Counted from the stretch's first letter, positions 6,001 through 12,000 are shown. The stretch: 60,733 bases of DNA from Theionarchaea archaeon (GCA_018992565.1 JACVGW010000008.1:1-60733); one strand, 5' to 3'. Numbers: made by a program.

Positions 6001-9000
6001 GTGTATGTTATGCTGGCAGGTATGCCCCACAGGTGCCCTGGTTGAGGTAGACCCTGCAGAAATGAAGCTGGGGACAGCCACTGTCAACCGGAACACCTGC
6101 CTCGAATGGAGAAATGAGCCCTGTCTCGTATGCCAGGAAGTGTGTCCGTATCAGGCTGTAGATGTGATAGAAAGTGGTGGGAGAGGACGAAGTGACGGTG
6201 GTAGACGAGGTCCAACGGTGAACAGGTCCCTGTGTGCAGGATGTGGCGCCTGTGAACGTCACTGCCCCACAGAACCCACATCAATCAGTGTCAGTCCTGA
6301 AGGTGAAAAACGCTATTGACCCTCATCACAGCCCAGTCCTTCCAAGAAAGAAGAGGTAGATTATTCTTGGATCCGCTTTCTCTCATATTCCATGCGTTTC
6401 AGTTCTGCTCTCTTGATTTTCCCACTCATAGTCTTGGGGAGGCTTTCCACGAACTCGATTTCTCTGGGATACTTGTAGGGGGCAGTCACCTGTTTGGTAT
6501 GATTCTGTAGTTCTGCCTTCAAAGCTTCAGATGGGTCCCATCCCCTGTTCAAGACCACAAATGCCTTGACAATTTCGCCACGGTCAGGATGGGGGGACCC
6601 CACAGCCGCACACTCCTGTACAGCCGGGTGAGTCAGCAATGCATCTTCAACTTCAAAGGGACCTATCCTGTACCCAGCACTCAGGATCACATCATCTGCC
6701 CGCCCCTCAAACCAGTAGTATCCTTCCTCATCCATTCTGCATAAATCACCCGTGTGGTACCTGCCGTCCTTGACAACTTCTTTCATCTTTTCCGGCATCT
6801 TGTAGTACTCCTTGAACAGGGAGGGCAATCCAAACTCTGTGGTAACCTCTCCGACTTCCCCCGGCTTTGCCTCTTCTCCCTTGTCATTCAGGATTCTGAC
6901 ATCCTGTCCTGGCATGGGGAACCCCATACTCCCAGGTTTCACCGTGATGCCCAGGTAGTTACATACCAGACAGACTGTCTCAGTCTGGCCGTACCCTTCC
7001 CGGATTGTGATGTTGAATTTTTCCCTGAAGAAGTCAATAACCTCTCTGTTCAGAGGTTCACCTGCAGACACAAAACTTCGGATATTACTCAAATCGTATT
7101 GAGCTACGTGTGGCACCTTGATCATGATTCTGAGCTCGGTGGGAGTCAAGCAGCAGATAGTGACCTTATGGTTTTCAAGCAGCCTGAAGTACCGCTCAGG
7201 ATTGAAGCGTCCATCATACAAAAGATCTGTTGCTCCCACATTCATGGTAACACCCAGATGTGTCCAGAACCACTTGGCCCACCCAGGAGAGGTAGTGGCC
7301 CAGATGACATCATCTTCTTGAGCACCATACCAGTATGGAACATTGATCTTCTTGAATGCGTACATCCAGCTGTTCTGATGTACCACTCCTTTTGGCAGTC
7401 CTGTAGTGCCTGAAGTGTATGAAATATAGAAGACGTCGTCACTTCTCTTGGGGTGTGTCTTGAATTCGGAAGAAGCTTTTTTCATCTCCTGTTCATAGGA
7501 TATCCATCCTTCTTTTTCTCCATTAACCAGGATATAGCTCGTCACACTATGTAACTCAGAACGAACTTCATCTACCATTTCCAGTCCACTTTCATTTGTT
7601 ATTATAGCTTTGGCCTGACAGTTATTTGACCGATACACTACATTCCTTGATCGAAGCATTTCCACTGCTGGTGTGATGATACCACCCACCTTTATGGTTG
7701 CCAGCTGGGCAATATATGTTTCTGGTATTCGGGGAAGCATTATCAAGACAGGGTTTCCTTTCCCAACTCCTAAAGATGTGAGCATATTGGCAAACTTGCT
7801 GGACTGCACTTTGAGGTCCTGATACGTTAGAACACGAGTTTTCCCCTCTTCATCTTCGTACAGGAGCGCAGGATGCGAAGGACGGTCTCTGGCATGTGAA
7901 TCAACTACTGATGCAATGTCATAGGTTTCTGGGACATCCCATTGAAACGTTTTCATCTCTTTTTCATAATCAATGGGGTTCATGGGAGTAATAAGCCATC
8001 CATCCATAAAAAGGTGTTGTCAATGCCAGTGGGTACCCACATCAGGGATTGTCTACTATTGTTGGCAAGTGCTTAGGCTCCAGAATCAAAACTCCTTTTT
8101 CGTTTATTATGATCAAATTCACACCTTGAAATAGCAGTTGATTTACAAGTGGACAATATGAGTAAGAGATATCTGTAGGAAAATTACAGCAGCCTTTAGG
8201 GTAGGGGGGCCAAGAACATGAACTCAAAACACGGGAAAGCAGGGGTGAACAACCAGGCATATCCTGGGAACAGGGACCAGGGAGGTAACAGGCAGTCTTA
8301 ATCAGGTGAATCCTGGTCAACTCTCCCAGTCAACCTGCCAGATGCCAATCATCAGTATATCTCCTTTTTGGTCAAATACAACCTGCTGAGTTCGAATATC
8401 ATGGATTTTGTTCACTTTTTGACTACTTGAGAATGGGTATCTTTTTCGAAAAGCTTCATAAATCATATCTTAATGTCCACAGAAAAGTTGCAGTCGGAGA
8501 AAGAGGGGTTCATCAAAAGGAACGGCGTCATANNNNNNNNNNNNNNNNNNNNNNNNNNNNNNNNNNNNNNNNNNNNNNNNNNNNNNNNNNNNNNNNNNNN
8601 NNNNNNNNNNNNNNNNNNNNNNNNNNNNNNNNTGGGTATCTTTTTCGAAAAGCTTCATAAATCATATCTTAATGTCCACAGAAAAGTTGCAGTCGGAGAA
8701 AGAGGGGTTCATCAAAAGGAACGGCGTCATACTTGACATGGTGCAAAATTACTCATTGAGTTTTCCCCATTGTCGAGAGGTGTTCATATTCTTACGGTAC
8801 ATAGCAAATTCCTTTCAGTATTTCTCGGTTAACCGAAAAATACTTAAGTGCCTTTTACCCTACTTCACCGGAACTCAGCAGCCGAAATATGTGCAGTAGT
8901 TGCTATAATAGACAATGCTAACTGACAAGCTGCTGTCATAAAATGATAATGAAAAGGAGGTGATACTATGGAAAAGAAAAGGCTGTCGATCGCAACAGTG

Positions 9001-12000
9001 GGTATAGTTGTCGCATTGCTTACAATAATGTTTGCCACTGCCACTTCCTTGATGGCTGATACTCCATTGTTCACTTTGAGAATGGAGCAGGTAAGCAGTA
9101 AGATGAGCTTTCTGCCTACAGTAATGAACGGCTTCACCTACCACACTGAGAATGGGTACACATTCAGCAACTGTGCTGCAGGATACTGTGGTGGTGCAGG
9201 ACTTCTTGGTACAGACGCAACCTGCCACCCTACCTGTGATACATGCGCTGCCACATGCCCTGATACATGCTACAATACATGCCCTGATACATGCTACAAT
9301 ACATGCCCTGATACATGCGTTGCTACATGCGTTGCTACATGCCCGTACACATGCGATGACCCCGTAACGTGCCATGGAGAGCACACCTGTCAGGAGACAT
9401 GTGGGTATACCTGCCCTGATTCGTGTGGGGGGACATGTTACGGAGAAACCGAATGTTCTCCCTGCCCTCCCTAAGTAGTTGGTGCAGTGAGGCTATTCAC
9501 AATCTCTTTTTCTTCTTTTTTATTGAAAAGGTCGGATGAATCCTACCTTTTAACGTATCACCACCCTGGCTCATTTGAAGCAGAACCATTTCTCGCTTCA
9601 AACGAGAAAGCAACAGACCTATCTGCCATATCAACGCAGGATATTCTGTAGGATGGTGTGGAGAATCTTTTGGTGTCCCTTTAGAAGCAAGGGAGATAAC
9701 ATGCAGGGCACAGGGTGACGAGAAATGTACATTTCTCATGAGTCATAGGAGCACCATACTACAGAGGCTCCAGACGCTTCAGATGCTACTTTCTAAAGGA
9801 AGACACGTAGAAGATGTTAAGCCAGAAGATCTGTCAGTGTGAGGACTTCCCAGGAGAACCCCGGGGCCGCCATCGGGATTTGTGTTCTTGAAAGGCGGGC
9901 ACTGCCATGACGAAGACTGGAGTGAAATTGAGGCAGCTTTTCTTATCATGATATGTTGTTTTAGTATAGTCAAGGAATGGTAAAGGGGTAACCTATAAGA
10001 TGAGAGAGACAGGATGCAGACCTGCGCAACATCTTGCAGATGTATTCAAGATTGAAGAGGAGAAAGGAAGAGAAGAATATACCCCGGGAATGAACCGGTG
10101 CTGGTAATCTCACATAGTTCAGACAACAACTTTTAAATAATTCATGTACCTGGCTCTTTCATGAAGAAGTTATATTTTGCTGACGCGCGCACTCGTGAAA
10201 TTAGTTATGACGTTTCCATGGTGGCCAAACTTGAACAGATCCTGAAGGAGGCCGATCTCTCTCACTATATAAAAGAAGGAGATTACGTCGCCATTAAAAT
10301 CCACTTCGGATCACGGGGAGGACACAGAGGAATCAGGCCAGTTTTCCTGAGGAAAATTGTAGAAGCGGTAAAAAGCGTGGGGGGAAACCCTTTTTTAACA
10401 GATACGGTAAGACCCAAAGGACTAGATTATCTGGAGATCGCCAACATGCAGGGGTTAAACCATCTATCTGTGGGGTGCCCGGTGGTGCTGGCAGATGGGC
10501 TCTTTGGAAAGAATTATGTACGGGTTCCTGCAGGTGAGTCACTGAAAGAGATTGGCATTGCTGCCGAGATTTATGATGCTCAGGCCATGATTGTAGTCTC
10601 GCACTGTAAGGGGCATATTCAAGCTGGATTTGGTGGAGCCATCAAGAATCTTGGCATGGGTGCTATTTCCTCCCGTAACAGGGAAGGAACTTCTGAAAGA
10701 GGGAAAATACATAACCTAGCCAGAGTATCAATCATACACTTCCAGGACAAGTGCATTCTGTGCGGGAGGTGTGCTGAAGCGTGTGATCATGGCGCCATAA
10801 CAGTTGGGGATACTTTTGAACTTGATAATACAATGTGTGTCAAGTGCGGACGGTGTGTTGAAGCGTGTGAGAATAAGGCGTTAGGGATGGAACAGGATGA
10901 GGAGAGAATGCAAAGAGGAGTAGCAGAGGCTGCAAGAGCTGCTATTTCAACATTTGAAAAGGGAAAAGTCTTTTATATCTCTTTTATGACTGATATTATG
11001 CCCCATTGTGATTGCCATCCCCACGCGGATACACCCATTATTAATGATCAAGGTATATTGGCAGGAGACGATCCTGTGGCAATTGATAAAGCTGCACTGG
11101 ACATTATCGAGAGCAAGAACCCTCTGGCTGATTCTGCAGCTGAAGGCATGAAGCCTGGGAAAGGGCTACTTGAACGTGTAACAAAGCGGAACCCATATGT
11201 CCATGTGACGGCTGCAGCAGACCTGGGAGTTGGGGAACTGGAGTACGAACTGGTGACTGTTGAGAGGAAGAAAAAGGAATAGTCTCTCTTTCCTTTTTTT
11301 GAAAGGCTGCATGTGAAAGGAAGGTGCGACACCTTTTTATGGGCATTTTATGATGGTATGTAATGCTGTCTCCACGTCTGGCTCTGATTACGGCTATTTG
11401 TGCCGTGTCTTCAGCATCTATTCTCATCAGGATGAGTGAGGCCCCTCCTCTGGTAATTGCGACGTACAGACTGGGAGTTGCAAGCATGTGTATGGTTGCA
11501 CTTGCAGTGAGCAGGGGGCAGATCCATCAACTTCGCAGGCTGGGTAAGAGAGAAGTCATTGCCCTAGTCCTGTCTGGATTTTTCCTGTATGTACATTTTG
11601 CCACCTGGATTACCTCGTTATTCTACACGACAGTGGCCACCAGTGTCATCATTGTGGATTCTTCTCCCTTGTTTGTGGCAGGGTTATCATATGTATTCTT
11701 GAAGGAGACATTGAGTAAGAGAGTAATAATCGGAATTGTGATCTCCACAGCGGGCGCTGTCTTAATTGGATTGAACAACCCTGTTTCACAGAACATGATG
11801 GGGATCTTGCTGGCTCTGGTGGGTGCTGTGGGACTTGCAGGGTATCTGGTAATCGGGAGAGATCTAAGAAAGAGTCTGGATACCTTCAGTTATGTGTCNN
11901 NNNNNNNNNNNNNNNNNNNNNNNNNNNNNNNNNNNNNNNNNNNNNNNNNNNNNNNNNNNNNNNNNNNNNNNNNNNNNNNNNNNNNNNNNNNNNNNNNNCC

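Follow-up and report, generated by a model that had tools for sequence, protein, structure and literature searches.

A lineage-restricted family of Thr/Cys-repeat proteins with a predicted Sec signal in a Theionarchaea archaeon

What might an archaeal cell do with a small protein whose C-terminal part is built from Thr–Cys units? The question is raised by an open reading frame at 8968..9474 on the plus strand of the window, a 60,733-nucleotide stretch of a Theionarchaea archaeon genome, which encodes a protein of 168 amino acids. The initial annotation had read a conserved N-terminal module of this protein as leader-like and its tail either as a crosslinking substrate or as a metal/sulfide-binding surface array. 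We find no maturase linked to the family's genes, and regard a thiol-rich protein of the surface, or one that binds metal or sulfide, as the probable product.

Results

Gene and Flanking Signals

The gene at 8968-9474 on the plus strand is real, and its features and surroundings are the following:

8902..8911, plus strand: TATA-box-like element CTATAATA, from sequence reading, ~60 nt 5′ of the start codon
8956..8963, plus strand: Shine–Dalgarno sequence GGAGGTGA, from sequence reading, with the ATG 4 nt further on
8968..9042, plus strand: predicted Sec-type signal peptide, residues 1–25 (n-region MEKKR, then a hydrophobic helix and the putative cleavage motif A-T-A)
9043..9171, plus strand: conserved module that would open the mature protein, residues 26–68, from conserved columns and profile search
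9061-9120, plus strand: module core TPLFTLRMEQVSSKMSFLPT, with the FTYxTExGYTF segment coming next
9172..9471, plus strand: acidic Thr/Cys repeat tail, residues 69–168 (22 Cys, 17 TC dipeptides, CSPCPP end)
9253..9319, plus strand: 24-nt tandem repeat from Tandem Repeats Finder, 2.8 copies with 97% matches, coding for TCPDTCYN three times
9472..9474, plus strand: stop codon TAA
9505..9524, plus strand: oligo-T tract 3′ of the stop, archaeal terminator-like, from sequence reading
8875..9384, minus strand: 169-aa antisense ORF that arises from the ACA-TGC repeat codons and is not a gene

The flanking signals recur in the genome's eight paralogues, which are named here by their contigs. An A/T-rich TATA-like box, the putative promoter, lies 35–65 nt 5′ of the start in all eight paralogues, and a T-rich tract, the candidate terminator signal, follows the stop in all eight as well, no more than about 40 nt away in seven of them and about 55 nt away in the C147 copy. 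The Shine–Dalgarno sequence is GGAGGTGA in seven of the eight and AGAGGTGA in the C30 copy, and stands 4–5 nt from the proposed start. The gene would form a transcription unit of its own; transcription evidence is weak, consisting of two short contigs in one RNA library. The antisense ORF, which is longer than the plus-strand one, is not the coding frame: It has no family match, and conservation, Shine–Dalgarno sequence and signal are all on the plus strand. In all four public runs the contig breaks inside the tandem repeat.

Family Size and Distribution

The count of eight paralogues in the initial annotation was confirmed by searching the six-frame ORFs of the 2.8-Mb genome with an HMM of the module: The eight gave E values of 2.9e-18 to 2.7e-27, the next best match had E 0.26, and a second search gave the identical set. 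With lengths and counts based on the proposed start codons, the proteins have 120–225 aa, 9–34 Cys and 6–27 TC dipeptides. The alignment also agrees with the architecture described earlier, a signal-like N terminus followed by a conserved module and a TC-repeat tail with 9–34 Cys: All eight share a Lys-rich N terminus and hydrophobic helix, a conserved putative cleavage site of the form V-T-A followed by S, the module TPLYxxRMEQxSSKMNFLPT and an acidic T-C-x-x tail.

Among 1.84 billion representative proteins, the module profile matched 245 clusters at E ≤ 1e-3, of which 234 passed the stricter limit of E ≤ 1e-10, so that the family comprises at least 245 clusters at 50% identity in metagenomes. 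The matches listed belonged to the family under study only, and among the 150 of them inspected as listed the module formed the N-terminal end or stood behind an over-long ORF call. We reproduced the reported 47 homologous clusters. Five of them are named, each as a Theionarchaea or Methanofastidiosia MAG; together with the absence of the family from each of 100 other genomes of the class, this supports the proposed restriction to the lineage. The host is an anaerobe, and its relatives were assembled from sediment metagenomes. The window protein had no match at E ≤ 10 to NCBIfam or to the Pfam copy searched. The claim that no Pfam model exists is nevertheless true for that copy only, since 8 of the 47 relatives, a 99%-identical cluster among them, carry the precomputed label PF27846.1, a model that the copy does not contain.

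The paralogues are old, being 35–55% identical with few intermediates, and show no sign of recent diversification. Gene duplication has enlarged the family, which has dispersed copies in this genome and tandem arrays of seven genes elsewhere, and repeat units have been gained and lost as well.

Signal Peptide and Module

The N termini have the characteristics of type I signal peptides: The n-region is positive, the h-region is hydrophobic, and positions −3 and −1 are taken by small residues. Among 127 relatives, the n-region is net positive in 90% and the uncharged stretch has a median of 22 residues; position −1 is Ala in 118, and position −3 is Val in 86 and Ala in 23 (Val, Ala or Ile in 115). 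In the AF2 model of the window protein, a helix at residues 4–30 is the sole confident part, the module and tail having pLDDT of about 40–57 and no confident fold. These patterns point to Sec export, probably with cleavage after the V/A-T-A motif. The module that follows has invariant or nearly invariant columns at P33, L34, R38, M39, E40, Q41, S43, M46, F48, L49, P50, F56, Y58 and G63, and may act in docking or recognition, keeping the protein at the cell surface or attached to a partner. The family proteins lack a C-terminal anchor or sorting signal.

Constraint in the Thr/Cys Tail

Family-wide, the tails consist of 19% Cys and 18% Thr, with about 8.5% aromatic residues and more acidic (D+E 10.6%) than basic residues (K+R 2.8%). 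Thr precedes 74% of the tail Cys, and the Cys–Cys spacing is 4 in 49% of cases. In 17 independent pairs at 60–89% identity, changes affected 6 of 297 Cys and 4 of 233 Thr before Cys, against 383 of 980 other tail positions; the module changed at 137 of 646 and the signal at 172 of 480 positions. The Thr before Cys is conserved to the same degree as the Cys itself, which favors a chemical role for it. At spacing 4 the motif is C-x-x-T in 1,182 of 1,366 gaps (87%), and at spacings 3 and 5–8 the Thr keeps beside the next Cys in 64–77%.

Gene Neighborhood

The neighbors named in the initial annotation are all present: The C30 copy has a radical-SAM gene two genes away, the C68 copy lies within a row of four FemAB-like genes, and a wHTH protein gene is found 153 nt upstream of the C111 copy. 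A polysaccharide deacetylase is also near the C68 copy, two glycosyltransferases adjoin the C125 copy, two 850-aa ABC_transp_aux/DUF4350 proteins adjoin the C67 copy and its relatives in six loci, and one copy is directly 3′ of an M50 protease gene. The only enriched neighbor is a tandem Lrp/AsnC-fold protein. It is found in 16 of 63 metagenome loci, representing 14 groups when clustered at 85% identity, and its distance has a median of 399 nt. The genome has 10 copies of it, and three of the eight family genes have one of these within 8 kb (P = 0.003). Its AF2 model has pLDDT 90, with NirDL and many Lrp/AsnC regulators as best fold matches. Standing beside about a quarter of the family genes, it may be their dedicated regulator.

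Discussion

A Proposed Exported Thiol Array

Our leading reading, tentative and drawn from sequence patterns, is a Sec-exported Thr/Cys array that binds thiophilic metals, metal-sulfide or sulfur species, or forms a thiol-rich envelope layer. The pre-protein would leave through the Sec pathway and probably lose its signal after the conserved V/A-T-A motif. The mature protein would then open with the ~40-residue module as its putative docking or recognition element, the remainder being an acidic, Lys-poor tail of T-C-x-x units. As only Thr and Cys are constrained in the tail, it would present a dense, linear array of paired thiol(ate) and hydroxyl groups outside the cell, for which binding or an envelope layer would be the likeliest use. 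A metal/sulfide-binding surface array is compatible with everything observed. On the other hand, CxxxC differs from the classical metal-chelating spacing, and binding leaves the invariance of Thr unexplained, for which a paired chemical role would fit better. The protein may be matured by a distant radical-SAM enzyme, the genome being rich in radical-SAM/SPASM proteins with Cys-rich-peptide maturases as their nearest models.

Possible Crosslinking by Distant Enzymes

The last point leads to a rival reading that we regard as doubtful, a large RiPP of the CrpA kind. One or more distant radical-SAM/SPASM enzymes would recognize the module and form a thioether (ranthionine) between each Cys and the Thr in the following unit, yielding a chain of small rings formed before or despite export. 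The tail itself argues for such chemistry: The Thr before Cys is as invariant as the Cys, the two occur at about 1:1, and the 87% C-x-x-T among gap-4 spacings corresponds to the i to i+3 geometry described for CrpA (PMC13692751). The layout points the same way, a variable, Cys-rich C-terminal part following a conserved N-terminal one. So do the 66 radical-SAM/SPASM paralogues in the genome, for which the highest-ranking NCBIfam models are CefB ("Cys-every-fifth"), TIGR04463 (the CrpC family) and PapB, and the presence in NCBIfam of TIGR04117, described as a "Cys-Xaa-Xaa-Xaa repeat radical SAM target protein".

Those matches are far below cut-off, however. TIGR04463 matches 57 times in the genome, at best with 230 bits against a cut-off of 525; the best TIGR04115 match has 102 bits against 350, and the CefB (NF038107) matches near the C30 copy have 116–161 bits against 600. 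TIGR04117, with a cut-off of 50 bits, matched a single one of the eight members, at E 0.091, and none of the eight family genes in a genome scan. Same-genus genomes without the family have 14 and 7 matches to radical-SAM enzymes of this type. Linkage is at the level of chance: A radical-SAM gene lies within 500 nt of none of the eight copies, within 2–5 kb of one and within 8 kb of two, which is expected by chance in a genome carrying 66 such paralogues (random placement, 15.6% per gene, P = 0.36), and such a gene is found up to 6 kb away in 8 of the 63 metagenome loci, the background rate. Beside the genome's radical-SAM clusters lie short precursors of a different type, including a 46-aa one that belongs to the enzymes by the C30 copy, and the arrays of seven family genes contain no maturase. 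Gene context thus does not aid the RiPP reading. Ahead of the module stands a Sec-type signal whose cleavage motif is conserved, and at spacings other than 4 the Thr follows the next Cys rather than position +3, so that the ring size would have to vary.

Of the initial leader-and-substrate interpretation, the invariance of Thr and Cys and the C-x-x-T spacing remain in its favor, while the chance-level radical-SAM context and the position of the module behind a Sec-type signal speak against it. In its specific form, in which the T-C units are regular sites linking Cys sulfur to the Thr of the next unit and one or a few distant radical-SAM/SPASM paralogues recognize the module, we judge the proposal fairly unlikely. 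A lanthionine-type route finds no candidate near the family genes: No LanC-like gene lies near any of the eight copies, and PF05147 (LanC-like) has no match in the 88%-complete genome, a model silent in 14 control genomes too.

Other Explanations

The protein could instead be structural, an envelope or adhesion protein with the module anchoring it to the S-layer or membrane and the tail forming a stiff stalk with disulfides or with O-linked glycans on Thr. The signal peptide, the richness of the tail in Thr, Pro and acidic residues and the envelope genes by the C125 copy (glycosyltransferases), the C68 copy (FemAB-like, polysaccharide deacetylase) and the C67 copy (ABC_transp_aux/DUF4350) are consistent with this, although such contexts are not common to the paralogues. 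In sulfidic sediment, disulfides on the outside of a strict anaerobe would not be expected to persist; with neither a C-terminal anchor or sorting signal nor a confident AF2 fold, we find this role unlikely.

Secreted competition or signaling peptides of the defensin or conotoxin kind, with a conserved signal and pro-region and a variable Cys-framework product cut off after the module, would account for a multi-copy family with tandem arrays, for a conserved N-terminal part before a variable tail of fixed Cys framework and for the M50 protease gene upstream of one copy. Yet M50 is found in that one locus, and no M50 cluster is among those present in at least 3 of the 63 loci; no conserved processing site separates module and tail, the 63 loci and the seven-gene arrays have no linked immunity or export genes, and the paralogues are old. 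This makes the peptide explanation very improbable. Still harder to credit is a TOMM-type substrate in which a YcaO cyclodehydratase converts each Thr–Cys pair to a fused methyloxazoline–thiazoline: What is conserved is indeed the TC dipeptide, and microcin B17 reportedly contains fused Ser/Cys-derived bis-heterocycles, but the genome's one YcaO gene is at the end of another contig (C46) without a family gene, no dehydrogenase or E1-like partner is near any of the eight copies, and the proteins carry a signal peptide.

Comparison with Known Systems

Beetle β-helix antifreeze proteins, with their TCT motifs, resemble the tails in having short repeats with Thr and Cys as the constrained residues. 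Their Cys point inward in disulfides and their Thr form an outward, lattice-matching array, with a period of 12 instead of 4; the AF2 model of the window protein contains no β-solenoid, and our searches gave no sequence or fold match. Metallothioneins (PF00131) are likewise small, Cys-rich (about 20% in the tails) and without a confident fold in the absence of ligand. They are, however, cytosolic where the Thr/Cys family is predicted to be exported, they have CxC or CxxC spacing in place of CxxxC with an obligatory preceding Thr, and they are unlike the tails in aromatic content. PF00131 matched one of the eight members, at E 0.067, and not the window protein at E ≤ 10.

Two radical-SAM systems come close in spacing. 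TIGR04117/TIGR04115 ("rSAM_Cxxx_rpt") has Cys at every fourth residue, as here, and TIGR04117 is the only described family with this spacing found in our searches, which found no paper on either family. The CefB system (NF038107), whose maturase ranks first among NCBIfam models for the radical-SAM genes by the C30 copy, also has regularly spaced precursor Cys, with spacing 5 as opposed to 4.

Another parallel is provided by CrpA/CrpB and the radical-SAM/SPASM enzyme CrpC of Methanococcus voltae, the TIGR04463 system, in which crosslinks were mapped in CrpA at CAGM, CAVD, CAGD and CPLV (PMC13692751). CrpA and the Thr/Cys family are alike in being large, Cys-rich repeat proteins from methanogen-related archaea, in which a repetitive Cys-rich C-terminal part follows a conserved N-terminal one, and in having a conserved residue at Cys +3 (C-X-X-Q/D in CrpA, C-x-x-T here). 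In both, AlphaFold models the repeats with low confidence, and a metal or mineral role is suspected. The differences are that CrpA adjoins its own enzyme, that its repeat unit has 17 or 34 residues instead of 4, and that the words "secret" and "transmembrane" do not occur in the text of PMC13692751, whereas the Thr/Cys genes stand apart from such an enzyme and their products have a conserved Sec-type signal. The CrpA system has a TIGR04463 enzyme, and our genome has none at that model's cut-off.

If distant radical-SAM enzymes did crosslink the tails, the arrangement would resemble that of the prochlorosins, with many dispersed precursors and distant enzymes. The family would then be an archaeal counterpart at protein scale, with dispersed or arrayed precursors sharing one module, each giving rise to an exported chain of small thioether rings.

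Eight paralogues in one genome

A search of every six-frame ORF of the 2.8-Mb assembly with a profile of the module TPLYxxRMEQxSSKMNFLPT picked out eight proteins with E-values no higher than 2.9e-18, the ninth-ranked match having an E of 0.26, and an independent whole-genome search returned the identical eight. The eight-member family of the initial annotation was thereby confirmed, its members being 120-225 aa long with 9-34 Cys. Seven of the eight carry an GGAGGTGA motif 4-5 nt ahead of the proposed start, the copy on contig C30 having AGAGGTGA instead; in every copy an A/T-rich TATA-like box precedes the start by 35-65 nt and a T-rich tract comes after the stop. 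By these signals, each of the eight paralogues appears to be a transcription unit of its own that is strongly translated. For the copies on contigs C30, C55 and C68, the codon at the distance appropriate to the SD motif is ATA or ACG and not a canonical start, and the Lys-rich n-region common to the other paralogues sits upstream of the first ATG, GTG or TTG. The SD spacing and the upstream n-region suggest non-canonical start codons in these three copies; the candidate positions in the fetched loci are L001 9250 (ATA), L002 9512 (ACG, - strand) and L007 10431 (ATA, - strand).

The window gene and its flanks show the following features.

8968-9474, + strand: open frame of 168 codons, from ORF calling and translation
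8956-8963, + strand: GGAGGTGA, an SD-type motif before the gene, read from the sequence
near 8902-8911, + strand: TATA-like box upstream of the gene, read from the sequence
9505-9524, + strand: T-rich tract 3' of the gene, read from the sequence
9253-9319: tandem repeat in the gene, a 24-nt unit coding TCPDTCYN in 2.8 copies at 97% identity
8875-9384: antisense ORF, longer than the window gene

We rejected the antisense ORF as a gene, as it is a by-product of the ACA-TGC codon repeat and has neither relatives nor translation signals. The window protein starts with the Lys-rich MEKKR, followed by a hydrophobic stretch closing with A-T-A. Its conserved block is TPLFTLRMEQVSSKMSFLPT, then FTYHTENGYTF, and its tail of 100 residues contains 22 Cys, 17 of these within TC dipeptides. 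The C-terminus is CSPCPP; across an alignment of 127 family proteins, the terminal residues are C-x-P in 27, P-C(x) in 10 and C in 41, and such endings may be a conserved C-terminal feature.

Upstream of the gene, positions 8434-8632 are a run of N with duplicated flanks (8427-8490 and 8633-8736), and the ORFs on either side share identical first 20 residues. A contig from a public DNA run joins 8433 straight to 8633, 99 of its letters agreeing with the sequence on either side, and the N run and its flanking duplication look like a scaffolding artefact 330 nt upstream of the window gene. The public runs that contain this stretch, from seven studies, are labelled as metagenomes of marine sediment, estuary, mangrove, sediment and soil. 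One metatranscriptome run gave two contigs (97 nt and 54 nt) at 9186-9306, the rest of the 1.9-kb query being uncovered; with DNA carry-over possible, these are at most a hint of transcription.

Signal, module and tail

Among 127 aligned relatives, the putative -1 position is Ala in 118 and the putative -3 position Val in 86 and Ala in 23, while the putative +1 position is Ser, Gly or Thr. The n-region is net positive in 90% of them and the uncharged stretch has a median length of 22 residues. This N-terminus has the classical Sec signal pattern with a predicted signal peptidase I site, and a cleavable signal is favoured over a mere membrane anchor because an anchor would need no conserved Ala at -1. 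An AF2 model of the window protein with the 127 relatives reached a mean pLDDT of 53 and was confident only for the signal helix (residues 4-30), the module and tail scoring about 40-57. The ESM Atlas had no usable match for the family proteins P0001 or P0042, and in a sequence search of the PDB the module profile gave a single match at E 0.36, nothing meaningful, and the tail none.

The tails of 177 proteins consist of 19% Cys and 18% Thr, with 10.6% D+E and 2.8% K+R, and 74% of their Cys are preceded by Thr. Successive Cys are spaced by 4 in 49% of cases, by 3 in 14% and by 5 in 17%. We measured constraint on the proteins by position class, using 17 independent pairs at 60-89% identity.

Table. 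Changes by position class in 17 protein pairs
Position class: changed/aligned
Tail Cys: 6/297
Tail Thr before Cys: 4/233
Other tail positions: 383/980
Module: 137/646
Signal: 172/480

The tail Thr is thus as constrained as Cys (4/233 and 6/297, both somewhat flattered by global alignment, which rewards C-C and T-T matches), and this alignment bias cannot yield the 20-fold contrast between Thr/Cys and other positions. At Cys spacings other than 4, Thr stands directly ahead of the next Cys in 64-77% of cases; Thr at +3 of the preceding Cys occurs in 0-21% at gaps 3 and 5-7, and in 64% at gap 8. Judged from the sequences, the fixed unit of the tail is the TC dipeptide.

The family elsewhere

A word-indexed search reproduced the 47 homologous clusters counted previously, the five named ones all being Theionarchaea or Methanofastidiosia MAGs. 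Scoring a profile of the N-terminal 72 columns against 1.84 billion representatives gave 245 clusters at E<=1e-3, a count that falls to 234 at E<=1e-10. Among the 150 listed matches the module is N-terminal, or follows extra residues where the ORF had been called too long. The family was absent from all 100 other genomes of the same class, among them two from its own genus (91% and 84% complete) and one from its own taxonomic family, which together with the named clusters supports the proposed restriction to the lineage.

Metagenomes, genomes and viruses were scanned with a degenerate DNA pattern of the module. In species-representative genomes one match proved to be a true copy, carried by a 7-kb contig from a Woesearchaeota-labelled MAG, and a second was due to chance. 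The single match among viral contigs holds no family ORF and was likewise dismissed as chance, leaving no true viral copy in that scan. Metagenome contigs gave 119 stretches, and rescanning of the fetched loci with the module profile found 154 family ORFs on 113 loci. Family genes also occur in tandem arrays, with seven copies in a single orientation within 8 kb (L083 2117-9943). There (the locus shares its contig with L051) and at L034 1-7080, every one of the seven family genes has its own SD motif; the row of seven is interrupted only by an opposite-strand 839-aa ORF that weakly resembles spermine synthase.

Compared in pairs, 91 unique genes are 97% or more identical, or else no more than about 60% (the bulk at ~35-55%), with about four pairs between, and this bimodality indicates that the paralogues are old and the near-identical genes strain variants. 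Close relatives differ by repeat-unit indels, for example at 91% identity with 16 gap positions. A divergent subgroup (P0041, P0042, P0047 and P0048) has the shorter motif SPLFNVRMDQ, a 50-residue linker and tails in which TCxxTC recurs very regularly and the x residues are basic (TCRSTCPDTCRQTCVATCPRTC). These four proteins and a few others bear the precomputed label PF27846.1; we found no mention of PF27846 in the literature. A literature search including TIGR04117/TIGR04115, "Cys-every-fifth" and Theionarchaea found no published account of this family.

Gene neighbourhoods and an Lrp/AsnC-fold neighbour

The eight family-gene neighbourhoods differ from one another, as seen for the following copies.

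Window copy (C8): acyl-CoA synthetase, polyferredoxin, DUF362, IscS/IscU
C30 copy: radical-SAM genes, histidine ammonia-lyase
C55 copy: MFS transporter, Pelota-like protein, purine genes
C67 copy: two 850-aa ABC_transp_aux/DUF4350 proteins
C68 copy: four FemAB-like genes
C125 copy: glycosyltransferases
C147 copy: M50 protease, DinB

Iron-sulfur genes lie downstream of the window gene at 10161-13830, one coding for a DUF362 protein that has a ferredoxin inserted in it and two for the IscS/IscU pair; this setting is not common to the other paralogues. Upstream of the C125 family gene are three 101-aa ORFs in a row (L005 3983-4285, 4478-4780 and 4842-5144, - strand), without a Pfam match.

For a wider search of partners, we called genes in 63 metagenome loci of at least 3 kb and sorted into clusters the 622 proteins encoded no more than 6 kb from a family gene. 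The M50 protease was rejected as a conserved partner: it was seen at one locus only, and no M50-containing cluster recurred in three or more of the 63 loci. The sole enriched neighbour was a ~365-aa protein, present in 16 of the 63 loci, which form 14 groups at 85% identity; its gene stands in variable orientation, with a median of 399 nt separating it from the family gene. This gene has 10 copies in the genome, and three of the eight family genes have one within 8 kb (random expectation 3.9%, P = 0.003). Examples are L004 431-1519 and L006 4346-5449. The protein matches nothing in Pfam or NCBIfam; its AF2 model (pLDDT 90) consists of two wHTH-plus-alpha/beta units, a tandem Lrp/AsnC fold. In fold it comes closest to NirDL, a fused Lrp/AsnC-like protein that aligns along its whole length (TM 0.53-0.60), and to many Lrp/AsnC regulators, which align with one half (TM 0.6-0.7). 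We read the neighbour as a putative dedicated regulator, while leaving room for an enzyme of the AhbA/B or NirDL kind. Each of the same-genus genomes that lack the Thr-Cys family yields eight matches to it, none close to the two copies neighbouring family genes (382-398 bits against about 590). The other nine copies have no common neighbour theme, and several are near ~455-aa and ~370-aa proteins of unassigned family.

Radical-SAM and other modifying enzymes

A ~450-aa radical-SAM/SPASM family has 66 members in the 2.8-Mb genome (E<=1e-30), which frequently stand two together or in rows that can reach nine (for example, on contig C13 at 34-50 kb and at L001 657-8509). Proximity to such genes had been taken as support for a RiPP, but it is at the level of chance: two of the eight family genes lie within 8 kb of one, against 15.6% at random (P = 0.36), and none within 500 nt. 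The radical-SAM family occurs in 8 of the 63 metagenome loci at a median distance of 4.4 kb, and no radical-SAM enzyme lies within the seven-gene arrays. The same-genus genomes without the Thr-Cys proteins have 14 and 7 TIGR04463-like matches (E<=1e-20) against 30 in this genome. The enzymes near the C30 copy, like the 66-member family in general, have as their best NCBIfam models CefB (Cys-every-fifth), PapB and the CrpC family TIGR04463, and every score falls far short of the cut-off. Their cluster has its own 46-aa precursor with a MEVKRLNKKTW... leader and a Cys-rich end (L001 2137-2277, + strand), and contigs C13 and C29 have similar precursors, each with the shared leader and a Cys-rich C-terminus, at a distance of 4-164 nt from a radical-SAM gene.

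C13 38947-39093, - strand: short precursor-like ORF
C13 47242-47406, + strand: short precursor-like ORF
C29 9269-9418, + strand: short precursor-like ORF

The short ORFs near radical-SAM genes, of 46-55 aa with a leader of the form MK..LNKK.W..., are likely the true precursors of the adjoining enzymes. A single YcaO gene is present, on a contig other than those of the family copies, and no LanC-like gene was found in the genome with a model that also left the control genomes unmatched.

Likely function

The observations of the initial annotation held as a whole, and this is a real, multi-copy, lineage-restricted gene family in which only the Thr-Cys pairs of the tail are fixed and to which no modifying enzyme is linked. 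The predicted Sec-type signal with its conserved cleavage motif places the module at the would-be mature N-terminus. The protein would thus be exported and cut, the module may dock it to the surface or to a partner, and the tail would present a dense array of thiols and hydroxyls outside the cell. In a strict anaerobe from habitats like those of the public runs, such an array would most economically serve to bind thiophilic metals, metal sulfides or sulfur species. We hold this binding reading tentatively, at somewhat below even chances; it does not account for the invariant Thr, and CxxxC is not a classical chelating spacing.

The earlier interpretation, a crosslinked or a metal/sulfide-binding tail, is supported in part: for crosslinking, the invariant Thr-Cys pairing and the C-x-x-T geometry speak in favour, the linkage to a radical-SAM gene does not. 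The main rival to binding, CrpA-like thioether crosslinking by a distantly encoded radical-SAM/SPASM enzyme, would fit the one-to-one, equally constrained Thr and Cys, the very large repertoire of such enzymes in the genome and the existence of a described family of this type (TIGR04117, "Cys-Xaa-Xaa-Xaa repeat radical SAM target"), and C-x-x-T at the modal spacing equals the i to i+3 links mapped in CrpA (PMC13692751). However, the family is unlinked to radical-SAM genes though the same genome places short precursors beside such enzymes, its proteins carry a signal peptide, the TC rule would demand a variable ring size, and the membership tests run (TIGR04117, TIGR04115 and TIGR04463) all failed. 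We regard crosslinking of this kind as unlikely, with perhaps one chance in a few; a structural envelope protein, a secreted peptide and an azole-forming substrate are weaker readings.

With at least 245 clusters, multiple copies, apparent export and an unusually clean constraint on the Thr-Cys pair only, the family is distinctive. If unmodified, the tail would be a new type of extracellular thiol array, bearing on metal and sulfur handling by uncultured sediment archaea; if crosslinked, this would be the first protein-scale RiPP family served by enzymes encoded elsewhere.

Comparison with known systems

The family falls outside every described family tested and is in kind with the Cys-rich repeat proteins of methanogen-related archaea. 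Such proteins were only recently shown to be enzyme substrates (CrpA of Methanococcus voltae, 2026; PMC13692751); the supplementary text of the CrpA paper mentions neither the Theionarchaea lineage nor signal peptides in the portion available. New here are the four-residue repeat T-C-x-x, in which Thr is invariant, the combination of a conserved signal and module, and the multi-copy organisation without a linked enzyme. The CrpA cluster is induced on pyrite, and the binding of metals or minerals that we suspect for the present family echoes the similar suspicion voiced for CrpA in the same source.
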